DNA of 64,000 nucleotides from Bacteroidota bacterium (GCA_030682385.1 JAUXOG010000104.1:24023-88022), one strand, 5' to 3'; positions 14,127 to 56,696 are shown, counted from the stretch's first letter. The notes: generated from the letters alone by a model not told the origin. Translations and numbers: made by a program.

Positions 14127-14810
14127 TCATAATGACATTTTCACTCCATTATGTTTTAACCAATTTTCATACTCACGGTAGTTGGGCATTTTCTTGTCTA
14201 ACTCATTCCAAAACTCTGCTGAGTGATTTGGATATTTTAAATGCACCATCTCATGAGTAATGATGTAGTTAAGCACCGGAACAGGTGCCATCGCACATTT
14301 CCAGTGAAAGTTCAATCCGTTTTTTGGTGTCCATGATGCCCAACGGTTTTGCAGTTCTAAAACTTTTACTGAGGTTGGTTTGAGCTGAAACTTTTCTTCA
14401 ATCAGCTTTAGTCGTTCAGCTATTTTTTGTTCTGCTTTGTCTTTGTAAAACTCTTTGAATACTTTGTCGGCTTTGCTCAGATGTTTTTTGTCTAATTGAA
14501 AATTGCCTCCGCTTATTTTTAAAGGCACTTGCTGATTTTCTACTATTGTTAAACGGTAATTACGTCCGAGATAAAGGAATGATTGTCCATTCACAAATTC
14601 ACGATTTACTTTTCCCTGATTGAGTTCTTTCCATTTCGCAAGTTTCCTGAATATCTGATACTCCTTTGCTCTTACAGCGTTTTCAATTTTTTCTTCTGTT
14701 GCTATTGCAGGTGCTAACACTCTTACCGAGCCATCCCGTTCAATAAAAATACTTACCGTTTTTCGTCTGTCGGTTTTCTCAATGATAATATCAATGTCTT
14801 CTAATTTCAT
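14127..14810 (-). CDS. M48-family/DUF45 (YgjP-like) zinc metallopeptidase, a frequent accessory gene of type I RM loci.
   Basis: HEMVHLKYPNHSAEFW HExxH motif. Overlaps the hsdR stop. Confidence 0.75.
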   Translation of the reverse strand: MKLEDIDIIIEKTDRRKTVSIFIERDGSVRVLAPAIATEEKIENAVRAKEYQIFRKLAKWKELNQGKVNREFVNGQSFLYLGRNYRLTIVENQQVPLKISGGNFQLDKKHLSKADKVFKEFYKDKAEQKIAERLKLIEEKFQLKPTSVKVLELQNRWASWTPKNGLNFHWKCAMAPVPVLNYIITHEMVHLKYPNHSAEFWNELDKKMPNYREYENWLKHNGVKMSL

Positions 14811-17800
14811 CTTAAATCTGCTTCTCTGTTTTTAGCAAGCTTCATCAACTCTGTTGTCAGTTCTTTTGCTTTTGATGATAGCCCTTCAATTCTTGCATAG
14901 TAAATTTCATCTTCAATCAATCCTTCAATTCTTTTTCTTTCTGATGCTTTATCTGTCCAGAAATTTTTAATGTCTGCTGTCTCCTGTAATAAATGAATCA
15001 AAGTATGAGTGAGTTCTTTTGTCTTGTTGATTTCAATTTCGTTTTCAGTTGTCAGATTACTTTTTAGCAAATCAAAAAACGGTGCTTCAATTATTGAGAT
15101 GCCTTCTGTTTCAAGTTTTCTTCCTTCTGCCATTTCATCTCTCAACTCTCCCAACTGTTTTACAATCTCTTCCCAATTTTCTTTGTAAGCATTCAATATC
15201 ATTTCCAGTCGATCTTTGAAACGACTGTAAAGCGTTGGGTCTTTATCCAAGTTTACTTTGATGTGCCAGCGAATGGCATGTTCCATTTCCGATGCTTTTG
15301 ATTTCGGTGTTTTGTTCAGATAATCAACCTTGCTTTTGAATTCATCTGAGAGAATAGAAACCTGTTGAACTTTTGTATCAATTCCCAATGAGAGCAAATG
15401 TTTGTCAATTAGTTTACGGACTTTTTCGGAAGCCCATTTCAAATCCATTGTATCATCCTTGTAACGGTCTTTAATTCTCCAAAGCAAATAGCCCAATCGT
15501 TTTGCCGGAATCCAATATGTTGTTCCTGCCTGCACATTAAAAAGCAAATCCAAACTATCAAAAAAACTTTTGGAGTATGTGAGCAGTTCTGCTCTGAATT
15601 TTATATTCTTCGCTTTCTCGATACACTCTTCTGCAAACTCAAATTCTTTTGCGGCATCGGTAAATTTCTGTTGCAGAAAATTGTCTATCTCTTTCAGGTT
15701 GTTGTCAACAAATAAATCTATTAATCGTTTGTATCGGGCTTCAAGAACGGGGATTTCTTTATTGATGTCACGGAACACTTCTAAAAACTCATTCAGATTA
15801 CTTTTGTCTTTGTCGGTGTAAATGGAAAGTGCAATAGCTAAATGTTTTGTAACACCAAAGTAATCAACTATCAACCCAAAAGATTTTCCTTTTTTCGTTC
15901 TGTTCACACGGGTGATTGCCTGAAACAGATCATGCTCTTTTAAGCTTTTATCTAAATACATTACCTGCTCAATGGGTGCATCAAAACCGGTAAGCAAACG
16001 GTCGCAAACGCAAATAATTCCAATGCCCGATTCAGGTTTTACGTGATTGAAATCTGATTTAAAGTTTTCAATCGCATTCATATCATACGCTTCTTTCCTT
16101 GCTTTACTGATGTAGCCGGGTTCGTTGTTTCCTAAACTTGAAACGATGGCAGCGACTTTCAAAAACTCCAGTTGTTTTAATCGTTCTGCATCCACTTCAC
16201 CTTCGGGCAATGCTGTCAGTTCTTCAATTTTATTTTTAATGGCTATTTCCAATTCGTATTTGTAGCGCACCGCTGCTACAATACTTGAAGCTACTACCTG
16301 TGCTTTAAAACCATTTACTAAAATGTCGTTGTAGTAATGCTCCACAATATCTTTTGCAATCGTGGCAATACGGTCTTTTGATTCCAAGTAAGCGATGAAC
16401 GAACCATATCTGCGTTGAATTTCTTCCCGTTCGGCTTGGGTGCGTTGCTCAAACATATCTTCAAACTCTGCATCGAATGCTTCTTTGTCCTGTAACTTGT
16501 CTTTTGAAACTTTGCCGATGTATTTTATTTCAACGGTTGCCCTGTCTTTAACTGCTTTATCAAACTTGTAGAAATCAATAAAGCCGCCAAAGCGTTCATG
16601 TGTTTTTATTTCGTGTCGTTCAGTAAGGAGGGGCGTTCCCGTAAAACCAATACGCACAGCTTTAGGGAATACCGAAAACAAATTATCTCCCATATCTCCA
16701 CCTTGTGTCCGGTGGGCTTCGTCAATCAGCAATAAAATTCTATCGCTGTTGTTGATGGTGTCAAACTTTTCAAACTTGGGAACTATGCCTGCTTCAATCA
16801 GCGATTGTGCTGAAATATTTCTTTCATCAAGAAACTTGTGAATCATCACCATGTTCACATCTCCGGTATCATCACTTAACAGATGCAATTTGTTTCTTCT
16901 GTCAATTATCCTTACGGGTTCACCAGTGAGTGCTGCGGTTTCTGAAAGCTGGTCTTCCAAATCCGTCCTGTCAATAATGAAAATAATTTTCAGATCTTTC
17001 AAATCATCACAACTGCGGAGTTTGCGAATGAGAAAAACCATTGTTAAACTTTTGCCGCTGCCTTGTGTGTGCCACACCACACCGCCTTTTTCAATGGGTG
17101 TATTTCCTGTTCTGTAATTCTTTATGATTTTTCCAACGGCACGATACTGATTATATCGTGCTACAATTTTTACTTCCACACCCTTTTTAATTTCCATAAA
17201 TAGGGTGAAGTGTTTCAGTATGTCAACCAAAATTTCTTTGTTCAACATTCCACGTATCAACACTTCCTGTCTTTCTTCATTGGGTGGATATTCAACTGTT
17301 TTGTATTCTTCGGGGAAAATGTCAACCCAATTGTTGTAGAAATCAAAATCGGCACTGATAGTTCCAACTCTTGCTTCCCTGCCGTGGGTAATGATGCTGA
17401 AAATATTGTAGTGAAATAATTTTTCTTCTCCTTCCTTAAAACCGTAGTCATCTTGCCGGGTATTGGCATAACGGGTAACCTGCAAAAATGCTTCGCTTAA
17501 AGGTTCGGCTACATCAAAATCTTTTGCCTCAACCACCACCACAGGCATTCCGTTCAGGAATAGAACAATGTCAGGGATAATTCCGGTGCGGCTTGCACCG
17601 GGCGTAAGTAATCGAAATTGATTTATGGCAACAAAAGAATTGTTATCGTAATTCTTAAAATCAACCAAACGAACCGTTGGGTCTTGTTCTCCTGTGAGTT
17701 CGTTTTTGGAAACACAGGTGCCTTTCAGCAGCATACGATGAATTTCTTTGTTTGCTTCGTGCAGGTTTTTACCGGGAAAGTTTTGTATCTCAAATAGTAT

Positions 17801-18022
17801 TCCCTCCAACTGTTTATCGGTGAGCCACTCTCTGCCATCATCAGTTTTGTTGATTGCCTTGATGTTGTCTTTAAAAACTTTTGGCAACACCACTTCCTTA
17901 AAGTTGCTACGCAAACTCTTTTCGGGTTCTTGCGGAACGCCAAGCCCTTGGTCAATTACCTGCCAACCCAACTGGCGAAGTTTATCTAAAAAGGGTTTTT
18001 CTACGTTGATGTATTCTGCCAT
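14807..18022 (-). CDS. hsdR: Type I restriction enzyme R subunit (HsdR), SF2 helicase/nuclease.
   Basis: TQGSGKSLTM (Walker A), DEAHR, and the overall 1071 aa architecture. Confidence 0.9.
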   Translation of the reverse strand: MAEYINVEKPFLDKLRQLGWQVIDQGLGVPQEPEKSLRSNFKEVVLPKVFKDNIKAINKTDDGREWLTDKQLEGILFEIQNFPGKNLHEANKEIHRMLLKGTCVSKNELTGEQDPTVRLVDFKNYDNNSFVAINQFRLLTPGASRTGIIPDIVLFLNGMPVVVVEAKDFDVAEPLSEAFLQVTRYANTRQDDYGFKEGEEKLFHYNIFSIITHGREARVGTISADFDFYNNWVDIFPEEYKTVEYPPNEERQEVLIRGMLNKEILVDILKHFTLFMEIKKGVEVKIVARYNQYRAVGKIIKNYRTGNTPIEKGGVVWHTQGSGKSLTMVFLIRKLRSCDDLKDLKIIFIIDRTDLEDQLSETAALTGEPVRIIDRRNKLHLLSDDTGDVNMVMIHKFLDERNISAQSLIEAGIVPKFEKFDTINNSDRILLLIDEAHRTQGGDMGDNLFSVFPKAVRIGFTGTPLLTERHEIKTHERFGGFIDFYKFDKAVKDRATVEIKYIGKVSKDKLQDKEAFDAEFEDMFEQRTQAEREEIQRRYGSFIAYLESKDRIATIAKDIVEHYYNDILVNGFKAQVVASSIVAAVRYKYELEIAIKNKIEELTALPEGEVDAERLKQLEFLKVAAIVSSLGNNEPGYISKARKEAYDMNAIENFKSDFNHVKPESGIGIICVCDRLLTGFDAPIEQVMYLDKSLKEHDLFQAITRVNRTKKGKSFGLIVDYFGVTKHLAIALSIYTDKDKSNLNEFLEVFRDINKEIPVLEARYKRLIDLFVDNNLKEIDNFLQQKFTDAAKEFEFAEECIEKAKNIKFRAELLTYSKSFFDSLDLLFNVQAGTTYWIPAKRLGYLLWRIKDRYKDDTMDLKWASEKVRKLIDKHLLSLGIDTKVQQVSILSDEFKSKVDYLNKTPKSKASEMEHAIRWHIKVNLDKDPTLYSRFKDRLEMILNAYKENWEEIVKQLGELRDEMAEGRKLETEGISIIEAPFFDLLKSNLTTENEIEINKTKELTHTLIHLLQETADIKNFWTDKASERKRIEGLIEDEIYYARIEGLSSKAKELTTELMKLAKNREADLR

Positions 18023-18042
18023 AATATTGTCCGAACCGTTGA

Positions 18043-18489
18043 TTAAGTTGATTGATTTGATTTAGCTGATTTATTATTGAATTTTGAATTTATCAGCCGT
18101 TTAAATTCCAAACTCTTTGTACCGAAATTTATAAGTAAGCCAATTTCTAAGTTATATGCTTCTAAATAATTAATTGCCTGAGCTAAATGCACATCTTCCA
18201 ATTTGATGATAGCTTTCAGCTCTACAGAAATAATTCCTTCAACTAAAAAATCAACCCGTCTTGTGCCAATCTGTTCTTCTTTGTAAAAAATAGGCATTTC
18301 AAATTCACGATTAAATAACAAGCCCTGCAATACCATTTCCTTTTCCATGGCTCTTTGATATATCACTTCCTGAAAACCATTGCCAAGAATTTTATGCACT
18401 TCCATTGCACAACCAATTATTTTACCTGTTAACTCAGAATATTTATAAGTTGTCTGAACCACTGATTTTTTTGATTCATTTGATTCCAT
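18043..18489 (-). CDS. GxxExxY-family protein (PD-(D/E)xK fold) embedded between hsdS and hsdR.
   Basis: CAMEVHKILGNGFQEVIYQRAM...VDFLVEGIISVELKA pattern typical of the GxxExxY family. Confidence 0.75.
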   Translation of the reverse strand: MESNESKKSVVQTTYKYSELTGKIIGCAMEVHKILGNGFQEVIYQRAMEKEMVLQGLLFNREFEMPIFYKEEQIGTRRVDFLVEGIISVELKAIIKLEDVHLAQAINYLEAYNLEIGLLINFGTKSLEFKRLINSKFNNKSAKSNQST

Positions 18490-18558
18490 TGATTATTATT
18501 AGTTTATTTTTTACAAGTTATATTTTCATTGATTTCTTTTTCAATCATAGTTAATCAT

Positions 18559-19911
18559 TTAATCAGCTTCAATCAAAGGTTCAGACACTTTCTTCCTCCC
18601 ACTCAGCAAATCACCCATCAACCCTGACTTGAGCTGCTGCAGTTTATGCAGGTAGGTTTGTTCGGTGTGGAGCTTTTGATTTAAGGAATTCAATCTTTCT
18701 GCTATTAGTTTTTGTTCTTTGAATTCGGGCTTTTTGAAAAATGCTTTTTCAAAATCTGCTTTACCAATATTACCCTGTGCACCTGAATTTACTTTATTGA
18801 ATATTTGATTTAATAATTCGCCTGCTGTTAATGTGTAGTAAAGAAAAACTTTGTCAATATCATTCTCCTTAATCTTTGGTTCAAATCTTCCGACACGGTA
18901 GTTCTGTAAAACGAGACTTGATAAACCACTCACCAAACAAGCTTTTCCTAAAGTTGCACCTGTTAAAGCCATTAGCACATCACCGTTTCTTATTGTTTCA
19001 TTTTTGAATTCTTCCATGCGTTCAGCAGATACATAAGAGCAATTTGATAAATCAACATTCTCAGGTTTTACCTGTCCGATTTTTACAACCGGAACTCCGT
19101 ATTCGGTGAAATCAAAATTTCTGAACTGGTGTCCGTGAACTAATTCTATTTGCGCTCCAAAAATTTCAACACTCCATTCATTGGGTATCATCCCTAACTT
19201 ACTCTCCCCGCCTGACGGACTGGCAGGTTTATACAACTCTGGGGCATCTTCATATTTCGGACGGAGTTTGCCTTGCCTGTCCGGCAGGCAGGCGGTTTGC
19301 AAATCAATACCACGGGTAAACAAATCGTGCAACATGCCTTGCTTAATGGCTTTGTATTTGGTTATGGCGGCTTGGGTTTTTTCTATCACCGCATCGGCTG
19401 TGCTGAGGATACGGGAGATGCGGCGTTGGTGGAGGAGTGAAGTTTTTGGGAATCTAATTTTGTAAAGCAACTCACGATTAATACTCGGGACACCCGTTGC
19501 TTCATTCAACTTCTTCAAATCAAAATTTGCCAATTGATAGTAAAGCCATTTTGCATCAACATTTTGCTTGGGTCTCACTGCATAAGCAGTATCAATTACC
19601 CAACAAGCAAGTTCAGAAAACACTGGTTTATCAAGTGTTCCTTTTCGTGCAACAACAACAAGAGGACCTTCGAACAAAAATTCTTTAGCGAAACCTACTA
19701 ACCCGCCTGTTCCAAAAATCTTAATTACAGTTTCATATTCAACACGAATTTCTTTTGGGCTTGCACCATATTCTACTTCTGCTAATTCTTTTAATGAACT
19801 ACTCATATCCCAATTGTCTGAACCCCCGCATTTGGCGGGGCAGGCATGATTCAGTTGATTTATGTGATTGCCCTGATATTTTTGTTCTTCTTTTTTTTTC
19901 ATTCTAATCAT
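18559..19911 (-). CDS. hsdS: Type I restriction-modification specificity subunit (HsdS) with two target-recognition domains.
   Basis: Two TRD halves separated by conserved helical spacer regions (e.g. RRISRILSTADAVIEKTQAAITKYKAIKQGMLHDLFT). Position between hsdM and hsdR. Confidence 0.85.
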   Translation of the reverse strand: MIRMKKKEEQKYQGNHINQLNHACPAKCGGSDNWDMSSSLKELAEVEYGASPKEIRVEYETVIKIFGTGGLVGFAKEFLFEGPLVVVARKGTLDKPVFSELACWVIDTAYAVRPKQNVDAKWLYYQLANFDLKKLNEATGVPSINRELLYKIRFPKTSLLHQRRISRILSTADAVIEKTQAAITKYKAIKQGMLHDLFTRGIDLQTACLPDRQGKLRPKYEDAPELYKPASPSGGESKLGMIPNEWSVEIFGAQIELVHGHQFRNFDFTEYGVPVVKIGQVKPENVDLSNCSYVSAERMEEFKNETIRNGDVLMALTGATLGKACLVSGLSSLVLQNYRVGRFEPKIKENDIDKVFLYYTLTAGELLNQIFNKVNSGAQGNIGKADFEKAFFKKPEFKEQKLIAERLNSLNQKLHTEQTYLHKLQQLKSGLMGDLLSGRKKVSEPLIEAD

Positions 19912-19924
19912 TAAATCAGGTTAA

Positions 19925-22654
19925 TCACAGTTCAGACTTTTCATAGCCTAATTCAATTAAAAATTTATCGAGTTGCGTAGTTTCCTTTTCTCTCTCCGTT
20001 AAAATGGAATGAAGTGGGAGAGTATATTTATTATGCAGGTTTTCTATTGCCAGCAGCAGTTGGCGGCTGTGGGTTTGCAGGTAGCCGTTAATGGTTTGGT
20101 GCAATACTCTGTTCCATCTTTTTAAAATTAGTTGTTTAGCTTCTTCGGGTGTAATGAGCAGCCGTGCCTGGTCAACTAAGTTTTGCTTTTTATCTTTTAT
20201 CTCCTTAATTATTTTTTTGCATTGCTTTAGTTCTTCTTCCAGGGCTGTGTGTTTGGCAATGCGGTTTTCATCGGCTTCTATCATAGCATCAAGGCGCTTC
20301 ACTTCGGAAGCATTTATTTCTGCTTCGGTTTGCAGTGTTGCAATTTCAGCAGCCAGTTTGGGTTGCTTTTTCAATGCTTTTTCATTGGCTTTAATCCGTT
20401 TCTGCAAATTCTTGCATTCTTTGTCTGCTTCTTTGCGTTCGCCTTTCAGTGCTTTTATGCCGTCTTTGTGTTCTTTCAACTCGTCTTTGGGCCATACATC
20501 GTAATCTTCTTCATTCCAAACAACATCTTCCAGTTCGTTCACTTCATTAAAGATGGCTTCAAGTTCTTCTTTTCTTGCTTCGTTGCTTCGCAGTTCTTTC
20601 AGCACATCTGGGAACTGGCTTTCCAAAATTTCATCATCGGGTATCAGTTCGACATTCCATCCGCTGGCAGCTACACTTTTTAAATCAAAATTCAGTTCGT
20701 TCCAATAAGCAGCTAAGGCACCACGGCTTTGGTAATTATCTAAAATGTCTGAACTGTGATTTTTTTGATTATTGTGATTAGTCTGATTACTTGACGCTTC
20801 TTTATCATGGTCATCAAGTGAATCAGATAAATCATAGTTCAGACTATTAGGTGCAATTTTTTCTGTAAATGAATTAGCAAATTTTCGGCTAAGGGCAAAA
20901 ATATTTTTGTTAACGGGGAGTGCTTCAAAATCGGGAACAACTTCATCCCACCATTCAGCCAACAAATCGGTGTAGGCATTTTGTGTGGCTTTTACTGCGG
21001 GGCTTTCATCCAACAGCTTTTTGATGTCTTCTTTTTGCGTGATGGCATCGGTAAATTTCAGGTAGTCGTTTTTCAACGGAGCAAATAATTTTTTACGCAA
21101 ACCTGGGTAAGAAGCAAAAGCATCATTCAAGGCATCTACTTCACTCACAGGAATACCACCTTGCAGGTGTGCATGCACATCGTGGGCTTCAGCCGGTGGG
21201 GCATTATCCACAAACCTGCGTATGTTCAGGTTGTATTCCTCGGCAGCCAGTTCTTCTTTGCTAACGAGTTTGCTGTATTTGTCAATTACTTTTTTGTGTC
21301 GGTAGGTGAAAGCAATTTTTTCGATGTCTTCCTGTCTCAATTTGTTTTGCACCTTGCCTTCTTTGTATTCCCGGTCAGCATTGATGAATAAAACCTTTTC
21401 TCTAAGGTGTGCATCTTTTTTATTTATCACAATCACCGAAGCCGGAATGCCTGTGCCGTAAAACAAAGCAGGCGGCAAACCAATCACGGCTTCTAAATAT
21501 CCTCTTTCAATTAACCATTTGCGGAAGTTGCGTTCGTCGCCACCTCTGAACAACACACCATGCGGCATTACCACTGCCATGCGTCCGTTATTATTCAATG
21601 AGGCAACCATGTGTTGCACAAACATGAAATCGGCTTTGCTTTTTACAGGCATCCAGTAATTGAAGCGTTCTTTAAACTTCATTCCGTCCTTGCTATAGTT
21701 CTGCGAAAAAGGCGGATTGGCAATAACGATGTCAAAAGTTTTCAGTTCGCCTTGTTCAATGTGCAAAGGGTTCATCAGTGTATCGCCATTCACTAAGTTG
21801 CTGTCGTAAATGTTATGAAACAGCAAATTCATTTTGCACAAACTCCATGTAGTTCCGTTTTTCTCCTGTCCGTAAAGTGAAAGATTACGGGCAGAACCGT
21901 AACGGCTTTCCACATAGTTTTTACTTTCAATGAGCATACCACCACTACCCACAGTAGGGTCATAAATTTCCGCATCCTGTGTTGGCTCTAAAATGTTTAC
22001 CAGCAGTCGCACCACTTCGTTGGGTGTGTAGAATTCGCCACCTTTTTTTCCAGCACTGTCGGCAAAATATTTTATCAAATACTCATAAGCGGCACCCAAC
22101 AAATCGGGGAACTCAAGGTTATCATCCGTTAATCTGATTTTATTAAACTCACGAATCAAGTCGCGTAAATCTTCATCGGTAATTTGCTTGTTGTTTTTTC
22201 CAATGCTGCGGTTGAAGTTGATGGATTTTAAAACACCTTCCAGTTTATCGAGGTTTGCATCTTCCAACGCAGCAAGTGCCTTGTTCAGGTGGTCGCCAAT
22301 TTCTTCCTGCAGGTCTTTTATGTAGGAAATTTTTTCACCTTTTTCATTTGCATCCGGGTCGCCGTCTAATTTTCTCCAACGGGCAGCAAGCGGAATAAAG
22401 AAATCGTATTCGGGTGCGTTTTGTTTTTCAAGTTCACCGTAAATCATTTCCGGATCGCTTACACCTCTGCCTTCAACAATTTTTTTCTTTCTTAAATCAC
22501 GGTGCACTTCAAACTGATCGTTCACGCGTTTGAGAAACAACATAGCAATGATGTATTCTTTGTATTCGGAAGCATCCATGTTTCCCCGTAAACTTTCGCA
22601 AGCTTCTTCAAGGAAGGTTTCTAACCGGGAGAGGGAGAGTTTATGTGTTGGCAT
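19925..22654 (-). CDS. hsdM: Type I RM methyltransferase subunit (HsdM, N6-adenine), with a roughly 350-400 aa C-terminal coiled-coil extension (909 aa in total).
   Basis: HsdM N-terminal domain and the VIANPPF catalytic motif. The C-terminal third is a long K/E-rich heptad-like region. Confidence 0.85.
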
Positions 22655-35648: not shown

Positions 35649-35753
35649 GCTACTTATAAATTTCGTGAGTACCCAATATTCTTTGTACTCCTGACTTCCG
35701 CACCTTTTTTTAAAAAACTAAAAATCTTTCTATATAACATACTACAAACATTT

Positions 35754-35896
35754 GAGTCGCCTACGGCGACCTACGGACTCGATTCTAATAGATGTCTGTA
35801 GAATATGAAAAATAAATAATACCGACTCCATTAGGAGTCGAATGTTTGTAGAAAGAAACAAAAAAAAATACCGACTCCAGCGGAGTCGAATGTTTT
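35754..35896. repeat. Three small hairpins sharing a GAGTC/GACTC core. Two are copies of a roughly 30 nt unit, AATACCGACTCC-(loop)-GGAGTCGAATGTTT, at 35819-35848 and 35868-35896.
   Basis: Read directly in the 440 bp spacer downstream of the amidase gene. REP-like or terminator-like. Confidence 0.45.
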
Positions 35897-36089
35897 ATTG
35901 AAACCCCGCAGTTGGTTTAATTTTTTTCAAGTGCCAACAACGCTTCATATTTTTTGCGAGGGAGTATCACTAAATCATCTTCTTTGATATATTTCTTGGG
36001 AATCGTTATAAGTGTCATTTTGCAATTCATAAATAAAACAATTATCTTGAAAACGAATTAATTGAATTTCAAACCAAATTTTTTCCCTT

Positions 36090-36722
36090 ATGAAAACAAA
36101 AATCTTTGCAGCGGTAGCTGGTAATATTGGATCGGGCAAATCGTCGTTAACACGACTTCTTGCAAAAGAATACGAATGGGATGCCTATTATGAATCGGTT
36201 GATGATAATCCGTATTTGAGCGATTTCTATGGTGATATGGGACGATGGTCGTTTAATTTACAAGTTTATTTTTTATCCAAACGTTTCCGCGACCATAAAT
36301 CTATTGTTGAAGGGGATAAATCGGTAATACAGGACAGATCGATTTACGAGGACGCCGAGATATTTGCAAAAAATCTGAACAAGATAGGGAAGATGGACGA
36401 CCGCGATTATAAAAATTACGTCGAGCTATATAAAGTTATGATGGAGTATCTTCAACCGCCCGGTTTACTGATTTATCTTGAAGCAAAAATAGAAACTTTA
36501 CTTGAGCAAATCGCAAAACGAGGGCGCGAGTACGAACAGAGCATCCCTCGCGCGTACTTAGAACAATTAGATGAGAACTACAAAGAATGGATCGGTAACT
36601 ACAAACTCGGTCCTCTGCTGGTGATCCCATCGGACGAAGTGGATTTCGTGCACGAGAAAGGCGACTTTAACAGAGTATTGATGTTGATACAAGCTAAGCT
36701 GATGGATTTAGGATATATTTAA
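36090..36722 (+). CDS. Deoxynucleoside kinase (dAK/dGK/dCK family).
   Basis: AVAGNIGSGKSSL P-loop and the dNK family pattern (ERS, DR motifs). Confidence 0.85.
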   Translation: MKTKIFAAVAGNIGSGKSSLTRLLAKEYEWDAYYESVDDNPYLSDFYGDMGRWSFNLQVYFLSKRFRDHKSIVEGDKSVIQDRSIYEDAEIFAKNLNKIGKMDDRDYKNYVELYKVMMEYLQPPGLLIYLEAKIETLLEQIAKRGREYEQSIPRAYLEQLDENYKEWIGNYKLGPLLVIPSDEVDFVHEKGDFNRVLMLIQAKLMDLGYI

Positions 36723-36844
36723 TATCTTTGTAATATTGACACCTCGTACTCAATAAATGATCTCAACAAAGCCGGCTCAATCCAATTTTGAAAATCCTAC
36801 TCAGGGACTTTAACCTTTTACGAAACATTAATTGTGGATACCGC

Positions 36845-38578
36845 TCACTTCAGTAACAAAAGTTTCTTTGTTTCTGTAAAAGTCTCAGTCTGTAAACGAT
36901 AGAAGTAAACACCGCTCGGAAGGGTGGAGGCGTTGAACTCAACTTCATACCGTCCTGCTTCTCGTTTCTCATTCACAAGTGTTGCCACTTCTTGCCCAAG
37001 CATGTTGTAGACTTTTAGTGTTACATAGTAAGTCGGAATACCATTCCGACCTACACTTGGCAATTGATAATTGATAATTGTTGACGGGTTGAACGGGTTG
37101 GGATAGTTTTGATAAAGCTCAAATTTATCCGGGACTGATGCGGATGTTTTTACGTCCGTTATTGATCCATTCGCATTTAGTCGTTGAGCATAAATATCTA
37201 AATTACCACCTCCACGATAATCAGCCCAGGTAAGTATCGCGCCACCACCGTCAATCGGGATGATTTTTGGAAATGATTGTGCATTAGTTGCCGTACTTAC
37301 CGGAACGCCGTTTGTCGCCCAAAGAATATTACCCGATGTATCGACCCGTTGAGCATAAATATCGTACAGATAGCCCGGATAATCAGCTGTTTCAGATGTC
37401 CTGTCGCAATGCCAGGCCATTATTGCACCACCATTGGCATCATTAATTATTTCAGGCGTAGAGCGGGCCCACTTACGAGAACATATTGGAACACCGAGTG
37501 TGTCCCACAGAACTGTTCCGTTATTACTAACCCGCTGCGCCATTATGTGATTGTCGTAATATGAGATATAGATTGAATAGACAAAAATGAGACCATTTGA
37601 GCCGTCCACAATAAAATTAGCATATCCGGATAAATCCTGAGTTTCGCTCGTCAGACGTTTGCCATTCGCGATCCACTGGTTCACACCTGAAGCGTTCAAG
37701 TGTTGCCCGTAGAATTTTCGGTTATGGGATGGTCCGCGGCTATCTTCCCAGATAATAAAGACACCGCCTTGTTTATCGGGTTGTGCTGTAGGAATTTGTG
37801 AAGAGGTTGTCAGATTAGCAATCGCGACCCCTGCTGTAGCCCACATCTTCGTACCGGCAGCATTTACGCGTTGAGCAAAAAGATTTCTTGTTGCATCAGT
37901 GCGCACATGAGTCCAGATAATTATTGCGCCGCCTGAATCATCGCTTACCATACACGATGGATATTGCACGCTTGTGGCGGTTGCTATCGCAACTCCAGTC
38001 GAGGTCCACATGATATTTCCCGAAGAGTCAACTCGCTGCGCATAAACATCGGAATGATCCATACCACCGCTACGATCATCTCTCCAGGCGATGATGGCTC
38101 CGCCAGCACCATCGGTGGTAATTTGCGTTGTATATGCCAATCCGGCTTTTACGGCTACACCGTTCGTTGCCCAAAACACTTGCCCATTTGCATCAACACG
38201 CTGGGCGTATATATTTCCGCTGGTCACACCGGTTCGTCGGTCATCCCAAACTATAATTGCCCCACCCTTCCCGTCGGAAATAATTTTTGGAGTCAATTGT
38301 TCGTACATAGTGGTACAAAGAGCAACCCCGTTCGTATTCCATCGAACACTTCCATTTTTATCTATGCGCTGCGTGTAAATATCACCTGCATCCGTTCGTT
38401 TATCCTTCCATGCAATGATGGCTCCATTGTCGCCATCACTGCATAAAACCTGGTCTCTTTGATCATTAGTAAAAGTACAAATAGGATTGTTTACTGCAGG
38501 GTTGGACGACCATTGTGCAACTCCAACATTTGAAAGAACGAACAGTAGAATAAATATAGAATACTTATAAAGTTTCAT
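36845..38578 (-). CDS. Secreted repeat protein with a T9SS (Por) C-terminal sorting domain. It has roughly eight 44 aa repeats of the form (D/N)IYAQRVDxxGxxxWxTNGV.
   Basis: Signal peptide, internal repeat periodicity, and a C-terminal ...VYFYRLQTETFTETKKLLLLK tail typical of por_Cterm domains. Confidence 0.7.
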   Translation of the reverse strand: MKLYKYSIFILLFVLSNVGVAQWSSNPAVNNPICTFTNDQRDQVLCSDGDNGAIIAWKDKRTDAGDIYTQRIDKNGSVRWNTNGVALCTTMYEQLTPKIISDGKGGAIIVWDDRRTGVTSGNIYAQRVDANGQVFWATNGVAVKAGLAYTTQITTDGAGGAIIAWRDDRSGGMDHSDVYAQRVDSSGNIMWTSTGVAIATATSVQYPSCMVSDDSGGAIIIWTHVRTDATRNLFAQRVNAAGTKMWATAGVAIANLTTSSQIPTAQPDKQGGVFIIWEDSRGPSHNRKFYGQHLNASGVNQWIANGKRLTSETQDLSGYANFIVDGSNGLIFVYSIYISYYDNHIMAQRVSNNGTVLWDTLGVPICSRKWARSTPEIINDANGGAIMAWHCDRTSETADYPGYLYDIYAQRVDTSGNILWATNGVPVSTATNAQSFPKIIPIDGGGAILTWADYRGGGNLDIYAQRLNANGSITDVKTSASVPDKFELYQNYPNPFNPSTIINYQLPSVGRNGIPTYYVTLKVYNMLGQEVATLVNEKREAGRYEVEFNASTLPSGVYFYRLQTETFTETKKLLLLK

Positions 38579-39065
38579 AAATCCTCCATAATTAATAAAT
38601 GTGAATAGCTTGAGCCCCCAAAATTACGCAGGGGATGTTATTGTAATGTTGTATCATCTCTAACCAATAATGAGTTATCTCGTGAAGCGAAAATGTTCAG
38701 TTGAACAAAACTCACGAAGAATCAACGATTGCACTATTCGGTGGTGTGATTAAACTTGGTGTTGATGAGATTCTAAGAATTCTGATGCTACCGTAGAATA
38801 ATGTGTTTAGTTTTTAATATTAAATAACGCGAGTTAGCTGCCACCTCAAATCCTATGTGCAACTTACCCTTCTCCATGATGCCCATCGAATAATTTTCTA
38901 TATTTTTCAAAAACAAAGAACTTGAAAAAACTTGATATTCTACAATCGAATATAAATAAATTAATAGATTATATCAATAGTCATCACTATTTATTTTCGG
39001 TGAACGCTTTAGTTTTAGAATGAAAAATTGTGTTTTTTAGATGAAAAACACACAATTTGGATTCT

Positions 39066-39190
39066 AAACTTTATCCTTTTTCCTCAGTTTCATAATCACT
39101 TCACTTCCGGTTGCACTAAGTTTAAATTGAACGCTATCCATAAATTGCTGTATTAAGAAAATTCCTCTTGTCTTCCGCAAACATTTTTCA
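39066..39190 (-). pseudogene. Orphan fragment (about 80% nucleotide identity) duplicating the 3' end of the anti-sigma kinase gene at 41432-41863.
   Basis: ttatcctttttcctcagtttcataatcacttca...gaacgctatccataaattgctgtattaa aligns with 41431-41545. Confidence 0.6.
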
Positions 39191-39342
39191 ATTCAAATCT
39201 ATTCCGGCTAAGGCGGAATTGTAAAATTATGCGTTAACGTCCTATGACTTATTCGACTGGGTACTGCAAGCCTGAAAACTGGAGGAACACGGATATAAAA
39301 TTTTATAGCAGGTTCCACAAAGAATTTTGGGATTTACTCTGA

Positions 39343-39382
39343 CGCTTCGTGTCTTTCGTGTCCGACTTCGTACTCTTCGTGT
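39343..39382. repeat. Four tandem 9-11 nt units, (C)TTCGTGT.
   Basis: gcttcgtgt ctttcgtgt ccgacttcgta ctcttcgtgt, read directly. Confidence 0.4.
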
Positions 39383-39509
39383 AACTAAAAAACAATTGAA
39401 CATATGAAACAATAAATCAGAAGTACATCAGGTCAAGATTCCGGGTTGATTACCGGATATATTTGTTTTCAGAACACGGGGAAATTGAAAAAAGTATTAT
39501 GGTACTGCA

Positions 39510-39655
39510 TTGCGGAAAAAAGGAAGAATTACAAAATCTGTCCGCTCCTTGTTATCCTCTCCGACGAGGTAAATTTTGTACACGAGAAGGGTGATTTTAA
39601 CCGCGTGTTGATGTTGATTCAAGTCAAATTAATGGAGATAGGATATATAGGTTAG
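39510..39655 (+). pseudogene. Orphan fragment duplicating the last roughly 40 codons of the deoxynucleoside kinase gene (about 75% nucleotide identity; amino-acid sequence conserved: PLLVILSDEVNFVHEKGDFNRVLMLIQVKLMEIGYI).
   Basis: Aligns in-frame with 36601-36722. The differences are mostly synonymous. Confidence 0.65.
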
Positions 39656-39675
39656 TTGGGGTTGGCTCTTGAACA

Positions 39676-40071
39676 TTACCATTGTTCAACTGTCAATGCG
39701 TCTATTGCATTGAAATGTTCATCGCGGGTTACCACTACGAGGCTATATTGTACACCTAATGCAGCAATCCAAAGATCGTTTTCCGGGATTGGCTTACCTT
39801 TCAGTCGTAAGGTATTCTTGATACGACCGTAATGTTGGGCTGTAAGAGTATCGCAAGCTAAGACGGAATTTTGTTGTGCAAACTCCTTAATGCGTAAAAT
39901 GTTTTCCTCAATTTTAATGGACTTGTAAGCACCATAGTAAAGTTCGCCTAAGACAATACTTGGGATGAAAACTTGTTCTGTCTGTTCCAGTCGTTGTCGA
40001 ACACTTTGATCATTAGCAAATAGTCCTATCACGATGTTGGTATCCAGGAGGATCTTACCATTCATCGGCAA
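39676..40071 (-). CDS. vapC: PIN-domain toxin (VapC-like).
   Basis: ILLDTNIVIG...D...TRDEHF acidic PIN residues. 131 aa. Overlaps the upstream antitoxin gene by 17 nt. Confidence 0.75.
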   Translation of the reverse strand: MPMNGKILLDTNIVIGLFANDQSVRQRLEQTEQVFIPSIVLGELYYGAYKSIKIEENILRIKEFAQQNSVLACDTLTAQHYGRIKNTLRLKGKPIPENDLWIAALGVQYSLVVVTRDEHFNAIDALTVEQW

Positions 40072-40285
40072 TAACTTTCTCGCACCCTTCTTCGATTGCT
40101 TGTTGTATCAATTCTAATTCATCTGGTGAAATTTTGCCGGTGAATGATAGTAAGGACTTTCCCGCTACACCTGTTTGTTTGCATAGAGCGAGTGTGCGGA
40201 TAAACTCTAGCACTTGTCGTTGCTGTTCAACGGACATTTGCAGTAATTGGTTCTCTATCTCTTCTGGGATCACATGATCGCCCAT
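40055..40285 (-). CDS. Type II antitoxin partner of the PIN toxin (76 aa).
   Basis: Small acidic protein immediately upstream of, and overlapping, vapC. Confidence 0.6.
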   Translation of the reverse strand: MGDHVIPEEIENQLLQMSVEQQRQVLEFIRTLALCKQTGVAGKSLLSFTGKISPDELELIQQAIEEGCEKVIADEW

Positions 40286-40485
40286 GGCACAATTCCTTTT
40301 TATTTGTTAAACTGATTTAATATACTGATTCTTAAAATAAATGCCAATTAACGTCTTACAAAAATACGCAATGCTGGAACGAACATATAAATCTCATTCG
40401 AGTGAGCGGAAGCACTGAGCGAGTTTTAACGATGTTCATACCAGCGACGTATTTTTGCTTGTTAGGCGCAGGCAAAGATTTATTG

Positions 40486-40821
40486 TCAACCGTCTTGTAA
40501 GTGATTTCTTAGTTCGGCTTCCAGTGCGACAATTCTCTGCGCTATTTTCGCTCCAGTAGAGTTCTTGATTCGAGACAATGTATTGTCTGCTGCTCCGATC
40601 CATACCGCTCCATTAGACCGTCGCACCGGACCGTATCGCGTTAGTTGCTTGATTATCCATTTCCAGTCTTCCCGAAGATTCGGGGGAAAGTCATCCTCTG
40701 AAATGGGATGAAATTCCATATATGCTGTCTTAAGCCTTTTCCTAACATCCCCTCCACCGACAGCTAAGTAATATACAGCATGCCCTAGTGTCTCTAAAGC
40801 ATAATTAGAGTGATTAGTCAT
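40486..40821 (-). CDS. Hypothetical protein (111 aa), with higher GC than its surroundings.
   Basis: Intact ORF inside the accessory segment. No motif recognised. Confidence 0.4.
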   Translation of the reverse strand: MTNHSNYALETLGHAVYYLAVGGGDVRKRLKTAYMEFHPISEDDFPPNLREDWKWIIKQLTRYGPVRRSNGAVWIGAADNTLSRIKNSTGAKIAQRIVALEAELRNHLQDG

Positions 40822-41295
40822 TTCTCATTTCAATCTTTGCTTGCGGCTAACATATGTAATTAAGCCATATTGCGTTATTAATATTTTTAGTTTTTTTATT
40901 TAAGAAATTTTCGTGTTGCATTGTCTATTTTATATTCGTCTATCGGTTCCAAGGTATCATAGTATTTGGTTATGCAGTATAATCTATCTTAAAAAAACTT
41001 TTCCAACGCCTTAATTTATCTCATCCAATTTTCTCAATAAGGTTGTTGAAAATTTGTTAGTTCAATATAATGCTTCCCATATTAATTGTCAATAAATTAC
41101 CCTTCCTTCTTGGGCGGAAAACATGAGATGTTTTATTTAATGACTGATGTTACGCAGAGTTATGATTTGTTGCGTAAAATCCTAAGCACGAATACCTGTC
41201 CGCCGCTTCGCTTTGGCAAGCGGGTCGAAATACTAAACAAATCCAAAATTGGAATGCTCAAAATTATAATAATCGGTGTTTTTGAAGCAGTTTTA

Positions 41296-41390
41296 CCTGC
41301 CTGCTGCAGGCAGGGATTTTAGAAATTCGAATTTGTTTCGAATTTCGCATGCCCGCCGCAGGCAGGGATTTAGGTTTTCGAATTTTTAAC
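41296..41390. repeat. Two copies of GCAGGCAGGGATTT (52 bp apart). The first is part of the palindrome CCTGCCTG-ctg-CAGGCAGG. There are also three copies of TTCGAATTT.
   Basis: Read directly, just 3' of the kinase gene. Confidence 0.4.
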
Positions 41391-41431
41391 CCCGAACACT
41401 ATTTTGCGTGACATGAGTTAATGATTCTAAT

Positions 41432-41863
41432 CTAATTTACCTTCTTTTTCCTCAGTTTCATAATTACTTCATTTCCGTTTTCAGTACGCTTGAATTTAAC
41501 GCTATCCATAAATTGTTGTATTAAAAATATACCTCTCCCGTTCTCACGTAATAAATTTTTTTCGTCTAACGGGTCAGGAATATTTTTAAGATTTATTCCT
41601 TTGCCTTCGTCGCAAACATGTATCTCAATGGCTGTGGATGTTGCAGTGGCACTAATTTCAACCAACTTTTTCGGGTCTCTCAAATTACCGTGAGTAATAC
41701 TGTTGTTTACTGCTTCGGTTGTTGCGACAAGTAAATTGTGAAATTGAATTTCATCAAATTGTATATACCGGTTCACTTTTTTTAAAAATGGTTCCACTTT
41801 TGAAATTTCTTTCGGAGTGCTTTTCAAAATTAATTTAAAATATTTTTTCTCAACTTTTACCAT
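41432..41863 (-). CDS. Anti-sigma regulatory factor (serine-protein kinase, RsbW/SpoIIAB-like GHKL ATPase).
   Basis: N-box EAVNNSITHG, G1 DEGKG, G2 GRGIF motifs. 143 aa. Confidence 0.7.
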   Translation of the reverse strand: MVKVEKKYFKLILKSTPKEISKVEPFLKKVNRYIQFDEIQFHNLLVATTEAVNNSITHGNLRDPKKLVEISATATSTAIEIHVCDEGKGINLKNIPDPLDEKNLLRENGRGIFLIQQFMDSVKFKRTENGNEVIMKLRKKKVN

Positions 41864-54932: not shown

Positions 54933-55772
54933 CTAATGTTGCAAAACCAATGTTGGTGGCTGTGCTTTATCAAACTTTAATTTCGGTTGTATTTCGATTA
55001 GGCGAACTCGTTCTCTCGCAATTTTACAATACTCGTGGCTGATGTCAATACCAATGTAATTTCTATGCATTTCACAGGCTACTCTTGGCGTTGTTCCGCT
55101 GCCACACATTGGGTCAAGAACAACGTCACCGGAATTTGTCCAAGAGAAAATATGGTCTCTCACAAGTTCGCAAGGAAATGGTGCTGGGTGTCCTTTCGCT
55201 TCTTGGTCTTCTTGTCTTTTGCCGACGACATATTCCCAAATATTGCCTTTAATTTTTTTATCTTTTACTGGCTTTGCTAATTTCTCTCTTGTCTGCTCGT
55301 TCTTTGAATAGTTTTTGTAGGTTGTGCCGTTGAGTTCTAAACCTGCGTGCATACAGTCAACTAAGATTGGGTTATGTGTCTTAACTACGCCCTTGCTGAA
55401 TACGAACATATACTCAAACTCATTGGTGTATCTCTTGCGATAGATTTGAGGGATTGGATTTTTCTTTCTGAAAATCATTGTGTCGTGTAGATTGAACCCA
55501 ATTTCCTTAAAATACATAGCTTGCTTAAAACTTGTTCCAGTTTCCGTAGCGTCAATTGTTGCATCAGCAACAACCCAAACCACCACACCGCCTAGTTTTG
55601 TAATGCGGAATAATTCTTTTACTATGTCTTCAAATGGGAAAATATAGCCCTTATAGTTTCTTAAATCATCGTAAGGTGGTGAGGTAACAGTCAAGTCAAT
55701 TACGTCATCTTGAAATTTTTTCATTACTTCAACGCAATTACCTTCAATGATTTTGTTTATATATTTTTCCAT
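54933..55772 (-). CDS. Beta-class DNA amino-methyltransferase (N6-adenine or N4-cytosine), the partner of the adjacent restriction enzyme.
   Basis: LTVTSPPYDD (motif IV) after DPMCGSGTT (motif I), in the circularly permuted beta order. Confidence 0.8.
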   Translation of the reverse strand: MEKYINKIIEGNCVEVMKKFQDDVIDLTVTSPPYDDLRNYKGYIFPFEDIVKELFRITKLGGVVVWVVADATIDATETGTSFKQAMYFKEIGFNLHDTMIFRKKNPIPQIYRKRYTNEFEYMFVFSKGVVKTHNPILVDCMHAGLELNGTTYKNYSKNEQTREKLAKPVKDKKIKGNIWEYVVGKRQEDQEAKGHPAPFPCELVRDHIFSWTNSGDVVLDPMCGSGTTPRVACEMHRNYIGIDISHEYCKIARERVRLIEIQPKLKFDKAQPPTLVLQH

Positions 55773-55781
55773 ATTTTTAAG

Positions 55782-56696
55782 CTATATTATTGAGAATAAA
55801 CCATTGTCTGAAATCGCTTTAATTGTTTTAATCTTGCTTTCAATTTTGTGAACTTTAATAAGTTCTTTCAGAGCTTCTTGATGGCTCATTCGCATAATCT
55901 TTTCCCGTTCTTGTGCTAAAAAAGTCAGGGCTTCTTCCTTTGCAATGTTTATTGATTCTGTAGCTGCTTGTTTTTCAATACCCCAGAGATTTTCGATTTT
56001 TTTTGAAAATGTCAGCATAGCCTTGTTTACTGCTAACCAATAGTCGTTAGCGTTTTTAGAAGGATTGATGGCGGGAACAGTTTGAAAAATTGTTTTTAGC
56101 AGTTGTTGGGCTTTTGCTTTGCTTTCAACTTCTGAAAATGCCAAGAGTAAAGCGAGGTGTGAGTATGTAAAAACACAAACATTATAAGTAGTCGCTTGCT
56201 GATAGATTTGGCTTGAAGTGTTTGGAAGTTGATAAATTGGGCATACAACCATTGCATAGGGTTTGCCTCGTTTCCAACCGCCCATTGCCTGAACTTTAAA
56301 GTCCTTCTGGTTTTTAGCTGTTCTGCTAAGTCGGAAAGATTTAGCGTCTGCAACAAGACTGTAATCTTTAGCAAATGCTTCAACGTCTGCTGCATCGGCT
56401 CTTTCTTTCAGCACCAAACTTTTAAGCCCTAATGCTTTATAGGATAAAGAAAGTAAAGCGTCTGTGTATTTAGAGTAAAGTTTTTCTTCGCTTGTGTCGT
56501 GCCCATAAGATTCTGGTATATTACCGCAAAGTCTTAAATGGTCAATAAGTGCGGCTATTCCCGATTTTTTTATTTCTGCTTCTAATTCTTTTTCTAAACG
56601 GTCAGAGTCGTTACTGAAATTTCCGCTTAGTTTACGGATTTCGTCAACCCAATAAGCTCGCCTTTTTCCTGCTTTGTCCGATATAATATTTTTCAT
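55782..56696 (-). CDS. HindIII-family type II restriction endonuclease.
   Basis: LVADAKSFRLSRTAKNQKDFKV block, and the following Y/PxxQ...SQI region, closely resemble R.HindIII as I recall it. 304 aa (R.HindIII is about 300 aa). Confidence 0.6.
   Translation of the reverse strand: MKNIISDKAGKRRAYWVDEIRKLSGNFSNDSDRLEKELEAEIKKSGIAALIDHLRLCGNIPESYGHDTSEEKLYSKYTDALLSLSYKALGLKSLVLKERADAADVEAFAKDYSLVADAKSFRLSRTAKNQKDFKVQAMGGWKRGKPYAMVVCPIYQLPNTSSQIYQQATTYNVCVFTYSHLALLLAFSEVESKAKAQQLLKTIFQTVPAINPSKNANDYWLAVNKAMLTFSKKIENLWGIEKQAATESINIAKEEALTFLAQEREKIMRMSHQEALKELIKVHKIESKIKTIKAISDNGLFSII

Follow-up and report, generated by a model that had tools for sequence, protein, structure and literature searches.

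How can accessory DNA enter a junction between two convergent genes that leaves no room for it? This question is raised by a locus in a 64,000-nt stretch of DNA from Bacteroidota bacterium (GCA_030682385.1 JAUXOG010000104.1:24023-88022), here called the window; all coordinates count along its full length, and its host is an uncultured Ignavibacteria lineage. In the window, an intact deoxynucleoside kinase (dNK) gene, D, and the convergent gene of an RsbW-like kinase, K, are separated by 4.7 kb, in which partial copies of both gene ends (D' and K') are embedded. We consider that this structure probably arose, with a probability of roughly 0.6, by single-crossover (Campbell-type) integration of a circular allelic islet through homologous recombination, at a hotspot resembling the minimal mobile elements. 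The gene ends concerned are as follows.

36090-36722, plus strand: D, intact dNK gene, 210 aa (Pfam dNK, 9e-58)
36597-36718, plus strand: last 122 nt of D, the reference copy of the D repeat (repeat search)
39527-39655, plus strand: D', last 41 codons and stop of a foreign dNK allele, decaying (alignment to locus L011, below)
41432-41863, minus strand: K, RsbW-like kinase gene, 143 aa (HATPase_c_2, Pfam 4.6e-27)

The D repeat aligns 36597-36718 with 39527-39648 over 122 nt without gaps at 76% identity (BLAST E ~7e-20), and the open reading frame (ORF) of the D' fragment ends in ...PLLVILSDEVNFVHEKGDFNRVLMLIQVKLMEIGYIG and a stop. The K repeat aligns 39063-39168 with 41431-41536 at 82% identity (BLAST E ~2e-26); the K' copy measures ~110-135 nt, and weaker similarity extends to ~39198. 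These E values are far past chance, and both copies lie where a first reading of this DNA (hereafter the original prediction) had placed them. Its order and strands were also reproduced, namely D (plus), a repeat-protein gene X (minus), K' (minus), ~330 bp, D' (plus), a VapC/VapB pair (minus), a 111-aa ORF (minus), repeats and K (minus), and so was its description of two tandem units, each made of gene end, cargo and gene end. Of the 41 codons compared between D and D', 15 agree, 19 show synonymous differences only and 7 encode another amino acid, which argues that most of the divergence arose while both copies belonged to working genes.

To what extent is the junction between D and K variable in relatives? 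Relative loci were collected by exact-protein look-ups, by a scan of a genome collection with D and by a metagenome scan with K, which together gave 13 informative Ignavibacteria loci; the metagenome scan yielded two further empty sites and distant homologues, nothing else. Comparison with related genomes, which the original prediction had proposed for finding the empty site, did find it at 6 of the 13 loci (L012, L014, L048, L078, L015 and L088). In the empty-site genomes the convergent dNK and kinase genes have no terminator or spacer between them and overlap via their stop codons, by 4 nt in L012 (917-920), L014 and L048 (both 10633-10636) and L078 (2679-2682), and by 18 nt in L015 (10619-10636). 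D and K are probably an ancestral tail-to-tail pair with overlapping stop codons, and in this clade their junction is a flexible islet. Because there is no intergenic space at this junction, accessory DNA must bring its own versions of the gene ends. The occupied loci show at least six different cargo arrangements, many of them with proteins of the type IX secretion system (T9SS):

L001 (= L009): D-X-ig-K
L011: D-VapC-VapB-X-ig-K
L093: D-VapC-VapB-1046-aa T9SS protein-88-aa ORF-K
L013 (same species as L093): D-VapC-VapB-T9SS protein, then the contig end
L095: D-623-aa T9SS protein-ig-K
L094: D-299-aa secreted protein-K

In addition, L010 and L090, both of one metagenome-assembled genome, have contigs that end 266 nt beyond D (L010) and 160 nt beyond K (L090). 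The counterparts of X and of the intergenic stretch, ig, in the window are the following.

36845-38578, minus strand: X, cargo of unit 1, 577-aa repeat protein with a T9SS C-terminal sorting domain (Por_Secre_tail, 5.9e-10)
38579-39062: ig, native intergenic stretch downstream of the kinase gene, in pieces 96-99% identical to L009, 87-92% to L011 and 91% to L093
38891-39023, within ig: segment 'a', relic of the 88-aa ORF found intact in L093

With six sites empty and no fewer than six cargo sets, the junction is a true insertion hotspot, as the original prediction had claimed. The flanking gene D is itself a fine-scale recombination mosaic among the lineages; between L010 and L012, for instance, identity is 98-100% over nt 120-420 but 77% over nt 0-120. 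In the D gene of the window (36090-36722), L011-like and L009-like tracts alternate over the last 120 nt. Moreover, cargo crosses lineages. X and VapBC of the window are ~90% identical to those of L011 (X alone 90%, and 87% to X of L009), though the kinase gene of L011 is only 68% identical in nucleotides and its neighbouring 628-aa protein only 53% identical in amino acids to those of the window. Variable or absent cassettes between the same two genes, mosaic flanks, cassettes crossing divergent flanks and a lack of mobility genes are all features of minimal mobile elements, and the cargo of different lineages was apparently exchanged by homologous recombination in the conserved flanks.

The T9SS cargo proteins (577, 1046 and 623 aa) have in common a 3' sorting-domain segment, 84% identical in nucleotides, in genes that are otherwise unrelated (36860-37024 in the window, 3648-3812 in L013, 12512-12676 in L093). 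This segment could provide anchoring homology inside the genes, by which their variable N-terminal parts might be swapped.

Where did the additional DNA enter? The closest relative is L001/L009, whose flanks are 92-96% identical to those of the window and whose D protein is identical to that of the window. Its locus has D-X-ig-K, and the window segment 39169-41443 has no counterpart there. Since the closest relative has D-X-K alone, the kinase gene of the window has 2,368 bp inserted in its 3' end. Both borders of this insertion carry the target-gene 3' end as direct repeats (K' at 39063-39198 and the end of K at 41432-41536), and they can be divided as follows.

39063-39129, minus strand: distal part of K', the displaced native kinase 3' end, ending in …VQFKLSATGSEVIMKLRKKDKV and a stop (informative sites, peptide)
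39130-39147, minus strand: left copy of an 18-nt identical run, the crossover interval, AACGCTATCCATAAATTG on the plus strand (alignments)
39148-39198, minus strand: proximal stub of K', the insert's own kinase-like arm, of foreign (L090-like) type, truncated and decayed and bearing a 3-4-nt indel (informative sites)
41432-41497, minus strand: foreign, insert-derived 3' end of the intact kinase gene, ending in …VKFKRTENGNEVIMKLRKKKVN and a stop, resembling the K end of L090/P0013
41498-41515, minus strand: right copy of the 18-nt run, the crossover interval (alignments)
41516-41863, minus strand: native body of K, its 60 nt before the core 100% identical to L009

The 18-nt run encodes QQFMDSV and is the same in both copies. 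Beyond it, the kinase C-termini fall into two types: L001 reads …VQFKRSATGSEVVMKLRKKDKAFTENK, with the key peptide QFKRSATGSEV, and K' has QFKLSATGSEV, which is L001-like; L090/P0013, another close lineage, reads …VKFKRCENGNEV…, with KFKRCENGNEV, and the intact K of the window has KFKRTENGNEV, which is L090-like. The distal part of K' is 89% identical to the K end of L093. We then scored informative sites, that is, nucleotide positions that distinguish L009 (native type) from L090 (foreign type). Before the core, the intact K is native at 8/8 sites; after it, 9 sites are foreign and 5 native. K' shows the reciprocal pattern, with 5 foreign and 2 native sites before the core (5/7 foreign) and with 13 native, 2 foreign and 1 of neither type after it. 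The switch of type across the 18-nt run (Fisher p 0.006-0.014) indicates that the resident kinase gene and a kinase-like arm of an incoming molecule exchanged reciprocally in a single crossover. The original prediction had offered serial integrations with replacement of gene 3' ends as one possibility; replacement of a 3' end did occur at K for one unit, and the serial events can be dropped because one crossover in K suffices.

The other possibility that it offered, tandem duplication of the convergent junction followed by differential gain of cargo, did not survive the comparison of the copies, which are not each other's closest relatives. The K end is of L090 type and K' of L009/L093 type, and the two are reciprocal mosaics. 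D' is 84-85% identical to the dNK gene of L011 and 83% to that of L010, as against 76% to the resident D, and its C-terminus MEIGYIG and the 27 nt after the stop are identical to those of L011. In addition, D' is contiguous with a VapBC block of L011 type: window 39527-40365 is 90.6% identical to L011 10508-11348 over 841 nt and 88.6% identical to L013/L093. In L011 and in L013/L093 the matching block consists of the last 122 nt of an intact dNK gene directly followed by VapC-VapB. In-situ duplication is accordingly rejected.

A more elaborate history might begin with an older tandem duplication from the D end to the K end, of which the sequence joining K' to D' would be the joint, followed by replacement of one unit with a foreign allele and by further crossovers. 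The interleaving of D, K', D' and K is formally that of a tandem duplication, and recombination or gene conversion is frequent at this locus. Yet at least one extra crossover would be needed to combine the native-type body of K with the foreign-type stub of K', the divergence within the pairs (76% identity for D/D', 82% for K/K') is far greater than that between host lineages without the structure (92-96%), D' is nearer to L011 than to the resident D, and no relative has a duplicated junction. We therefore regard such a multi-step history as unlikely. The features of the insert that bear on its origin, besides D', are listed below.

39676-40071, minus strand: VapC, PIN toxin, 131 aa, cargo of unit 2 (PIN PF01850, 2.5e-17)
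40055-40285, minus strand: VapB-like antitoxin, 76 aa (position and size)
41013-41094, minus strand: segment 'b', promoter-like TTGACA-17-TATATT on the cargo strand, 79% identical to L093 9242-9323 (promoter scan 11/12)

The VapC-VapB pair is 91-92% identical in nucleotides to the pair directly after D in L011 and L013/L093. Its genes overlap at 40055-40071, the PIN toxin having the small antitoxin gene directly upstream; NCBIfam VapC models match the toxin with scores below their curated cut-offs. D' is less similar to L011 (84-85%) than the VapC/VapB genes are (91-92%) and, at residues on which 10 intact genes all agree, carries 5 private substitutions, which points to relaxed selection, so that D' is a decaying passenger. 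Segment 'b' has its L093 counterpart upstream of the first cargo gene. The match of D' and VapBC to L011, together with that of segment 'b' to L093, indicates that the insert is a complete D-K islet of another lineage. A dedicated element with cargo of its own was considered as the source of the insert and rejected, the inserted DNA being an allelic copy of a related lineage's chromosomal islet. A viral origin of the cargo was rejected as well, no relatives being found in IMG/VR. We infer that the VapBC pair may have a role in stabilising the insert.

The remaining part of the insert lies between the VapBC pair and K.

40460-40852, minus strand: 111-aa gene with a flanking 21-nt inverted repeat (40460-40480 / 40832-40852; 90%, 19/21 complementary)
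40486-40821, minus strand: 111-aa hypothetical ORF, no family match, no domain
41291-41371: two copies of a 29-nt GC-rich palindromic repeat, …GCAGGCAGGGATTT, kin to the inverted repeat of the 111-aa gene

The region of the 111-aa gene has 45-46% GC against ~38% nearby, in agreement with the higher GC that the original prediction had ascribed to this gene. The palindromic motif GCAGGCAGGGATTT has 4 matches against 0.29 expected, is absent from all the related loci and has only one weak match elsewhere in the window. The homologues of the 111-aa gene found elsewhere have no such flanking repeat. The gene with its repeats may be a small cassette or a hairpin-associated insertion. Its family is rare (12 members), with homologues in defence-island contexts beside AbiGi, AAA_15/21, resolvase and restriction-specificity genes. 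Exact-protein look-ups of the 111-aa protein, VapC and X returned the same contig only, or nothing. A function of the 111-aa protein as a recombination directionality factor was considered and rejected, since it has no domain and its homologues stand beside AbiGi or AAA_15/21 in defence islands; we treat the gene as cargo.

How, then, might a foreign islet have come to lie in tandem with the resident one? The borders of the insert give a hint. The edges of the two truncated arms, ~39198 for the kinase arm and ~39527 for the dNK arm, face each other across a linker, and closing the insert at the 18-nt core gives the continuous order linker, D' arm, cargo, kinase arm. We suppose that a circle carried a foreign D-K islet comprising the last 122 nt of the dNK gene, VapC, VapB, the 111-aa gene, the promoter segment and the palindromic repeats; its kinase part would be the last ~170 nt of a foreign kinase gene, and the 328-bp linker would have closed it. 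One reciprocal crossover between this circle and the resident kinase gene, inside the 18-nt identical run, would have inserted the whole circle of 2,368 bp as in Campbell-type integration. The resident K would have kept its body and gained the foreign end, and its native end would have been left behind as K', fused to the truncated kinase stub of the circle. Such a single crossover between circle and resident K yields exactly the arrangement of the window, and it would also explain why the stub of K' is of foreign type and carries the indel. The foreign dNK end would have travelled as the passenger D' and would not be a second integration scar.

The opposite polarity, with unit 1 as the incomer and the crossover in D, was also considered and rejected, on the grounds that no D-like sequence occurs upstream of the D' edge, that K is where the reciprocal mosaic lies, and that the closest relative carries only unit 1.

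A linear fragment might also have entered by homology-facilitated illegitimate recombination, one end being anchored in K and the other end-joined inside the resident K, with the linker as filler. Such a route needs neither a circle nor a recombinase, and filler DNA could explain a linker of no known kin. The stub of K' upstream of the core is, however, foreign in type and decayed, as exchange with a circle predicts and end-joining to the resident gene does not, and 328 bp is unusually long for filler. We judge this route very unlikely.

Whether the crossover was made by host homologous recombination or by a site-specific enzyme is a separate matter. Target-gene 3' ends as direct repeats and a reciprocal exchange within a short identical core are hallmarks of integrative elements, and both are present. 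The original prediction had stated that no integrase gene is present, and our survey agrees: no recombinase domain was detected in the insert ORFs (VapC, VapB-like and 111-aa; Pfam, PHROG and NCBIfam) or in the 4.7 kb, none in the annotation of the syntenic relative for 10 kb to either side, and none in 20 further ORFs scanned in the window. The window has no tRNA genes, so this is not a tRNA-targeting island. Neither the core nor the backbone recurs among 95 loci, which include few relatives, or among plasmids, phages and viral contigs. The linker deserves a separate description.

39199-39526: linker joining the truncated 5' edges of both arms, 328 bp, no match anywhere searched

The search for the linker and its joint covered the window, the 95 loci, plasmids (PLSDB), phages (INPHARED), Rfam and IMG/VR (pattern scan). 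RNA folding gave no structure signal on either strand (z +0.85 and +0.37), and the small ORFs of the linker have no Pfam match and no coding signal. On the other hand, the linker holds four direct heptamers YTTCGTR at 39346-39381 with ~10-nt spacing, an array unique in the window (0.03 expected) that, judged from its sequence, looks like a protein-binding array. A 21-nt inverted repeat at the linker edges (39160-39180 / 39510-39530) was tested as a pair of terminal repeats and is only marginally significant, with p ~0.026 against shuffles and genomic windows; it is probably a chance product of purine-rich coding sequence. That the linker is a remnant of a vector backbone is a speculative suggestion.

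These observations bear on the idea of a non-autonomous integrative element that a site-specific recombinase of the tyrosine or serine type, encoded elsewhere, would mobilise in trans. In that case the kinase-like arm would be attP, the 18-nt run the core, the linker heptamers the arm-type binding sites, and D' a second or former attachment arm. The attL/attR architecture with replacement of the target 3' end, the exchange interval of at most 18-19 nt, the shortness and divergence of the homology arm, the four regularly spaced heptamers and the sharpness of both arm edges would all suit such an element. What speaks against it is that no recombinase was found in the insert, the 10-kb flanks or the 20 other ORFs, that neither the linker nor the joint turned up in any other locus or in the plasmids, phages and viral contigs searched, that relic gene ends and repeats are absent from the other occupied D-K sites (L009, L011 and L093 were checked for relic repeats), and that relatives have the cargo and the two arms as ordinary chromosomal alleles, none of it being element-specific DNA. 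We leave this idea a small share of our belief. Homologous recombination of a circular islet is favoured because D is a mosaic, cargo crosses divergent flanks, no recombinase was found and no other copy of the joint exists among the sequences searched.

Several points nevertheless weigh against integration of a circle by homologous recombination. The homology arm is short (~170 nt, 82%) with a longest identical run of 18 nt, and is a poor substrate for a RecA-type process; a short identical core is equally expected of a site-specific recombinase; the model would also need natural competence or another route of DNA delivery in this lineage. Moreover, it does not account for the 328-bp linker, which matches nothing searched and holds a non-random array of four heptamers. 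No donor genome, circular form or second copy of the joint was found, and all the sequences are metagenome assemblies, the joint being confirmed only by a different assembler, possibly from the same reads.

A related suggestion takes the joint of K', linker and D' as the closure point of a small recombinase-free circular shuttle, in which the linker with its heptamers would be a remnant replication, transfer or packaging site and the arms would deliver islets into D/K junctions by host recombination. We think this quite unlikely; if true, it would amount to a natural 'allelic-exchange vector' for whole islets among related genomes.

Could the tandem structure be an artefact, a chimeric path through the haplotypes of two co-occurring strains? 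The sequences are metagenomic, and assemblies often break here: those of relatives do so at L010 and L090, and the Logan contigs of the window's own sample (SRR13727541) at 41380-41406. A mis-join at shared k-mers, however, cannot produce arms that are cut short and decayed, with 328 bp of unique sequence between them, and an independent assembly carries the region on one contig: Logan contig L004 equals window 35980-41406 at 100%, including the joint of K', linker and D'. We give almost no credence to an artefact.

Contigs L004 and L007 of the same Logan sample end and start at 41380-41406 with a 27-nt overlap, just outside the stop codon of K. These ends suggest a branch of the assembly graph, and thus possibly a co-occurring haplotype with other cargo beside the same K.

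Apart from the D-K junction, we made some observations on its surroundings. In relatives, a HigB/YafQ-like toxin and antitoxin pair lies between an amidase gene and D (L001 9346-9817), and L093 has the antitoxin alone. The window counterpart of this spot (35673-36030) retains only a 118-nt piece at 35903-36020 (93%), overlapping a 37-aa remnant ORF at 35917-36030. The spot is a second small variable site, on the other side of D. Farther away, the window holds a probable type I restriction-modification system at 14807-22654, with HsdS at 18559-19911 flanked by 1071-aa and 909-aa ORFs, and a second restriction-modification system at 54933-56696, composed of a HindIII-like endonuclease (55782-56696) and an N6/N4 methylase (54933-55772).

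What can be learned from this locus? It shows the turnover of accessory genes at a site without intergenic space, in an uncultured phylum. The cargo at the D-K site includes surface proteins of the T9SS, a toxin-antitoxin pair and a gene associated with defence islands, in cassettes that carry their own gene ends and appear to move by recombination in the flanks. The tandem state is likely to be a rarely preserved intermediate, a natural merodiploid, in which the crossover is fixed to 18 nt and native and foreign ends can be told apart. It also carries a warning for annotation, because orphan gene-end fragments between convergent genes can mark the exchange of allelic islets and not integrase-driven islands.

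Finally, the locus can be compared with known systems. Type II VapBC modules of genomic islets resemble the cargo: at the edge of a variable region, the gene of a PIN-domain toxin overlaps that of a small antitoxin upstream of it. This likeness concerns the cargo only. The 'minimal mobile elements' of Neisseria are described as variable cassettes flanked by conserved genes and swapped through homologous recombination (PMC3787668, citing Saunders and Snyder, 2002, as well as Snyder et al., 2007). As far as that description extends, the D-K site is similar in having different whole-gene cassettes between the same two conserved genes in close relatives without mobility genes, flanking genes that are recombination mosaics, and the same cassette in distant lineages. 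Compared with the same description, our locus differs in that the flanking genes overlap, so the cassettes carry gene ends, in that two alleles stand in tandem with relic gene ends and an orphan linker in place of a clean replacement, and in that the host is an uncultured Ignavibacteria lineage.

A second comparison concerns elements that carry an integrase. Integrase-mediated islands, prophages and mobilisable elements, which target tRNA, tmRNA or protein genes (e.g. the NBU-type elements of Bacteroides), integrate at the 3' end of the target and provide it with a new one. Direct repeats of the target 3' end, an intact gene rebuilt with an element-derived end, a native end left as a fragment at the far border, and exchange within a short identical core are common to these elements and our locus. 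Here, in contrast, no integrase, excisionase or element-specific gene was found, the core is not reused in other insertions, and the inserted DNA is an allelic chromosomal islet that also bears the end of the other flanking gene.

Campbell-type integration, in which a circular molecule enters by a single crossover, is known from the merodiploids made with suicide plasmids in the laboratory. As in these merodiploids, two tandem alleles are split by a 'backbone', with hybrid homology arms on each side, and a second crossover could resolve the structure to either allele. Unlike them, ours is a natural case with a 'backbone' of only 328 bp and with very short and diverged arms. The locus exemplifies known processes: an ordinary one is seen here, well resolved, at an unusual intermediate stage.

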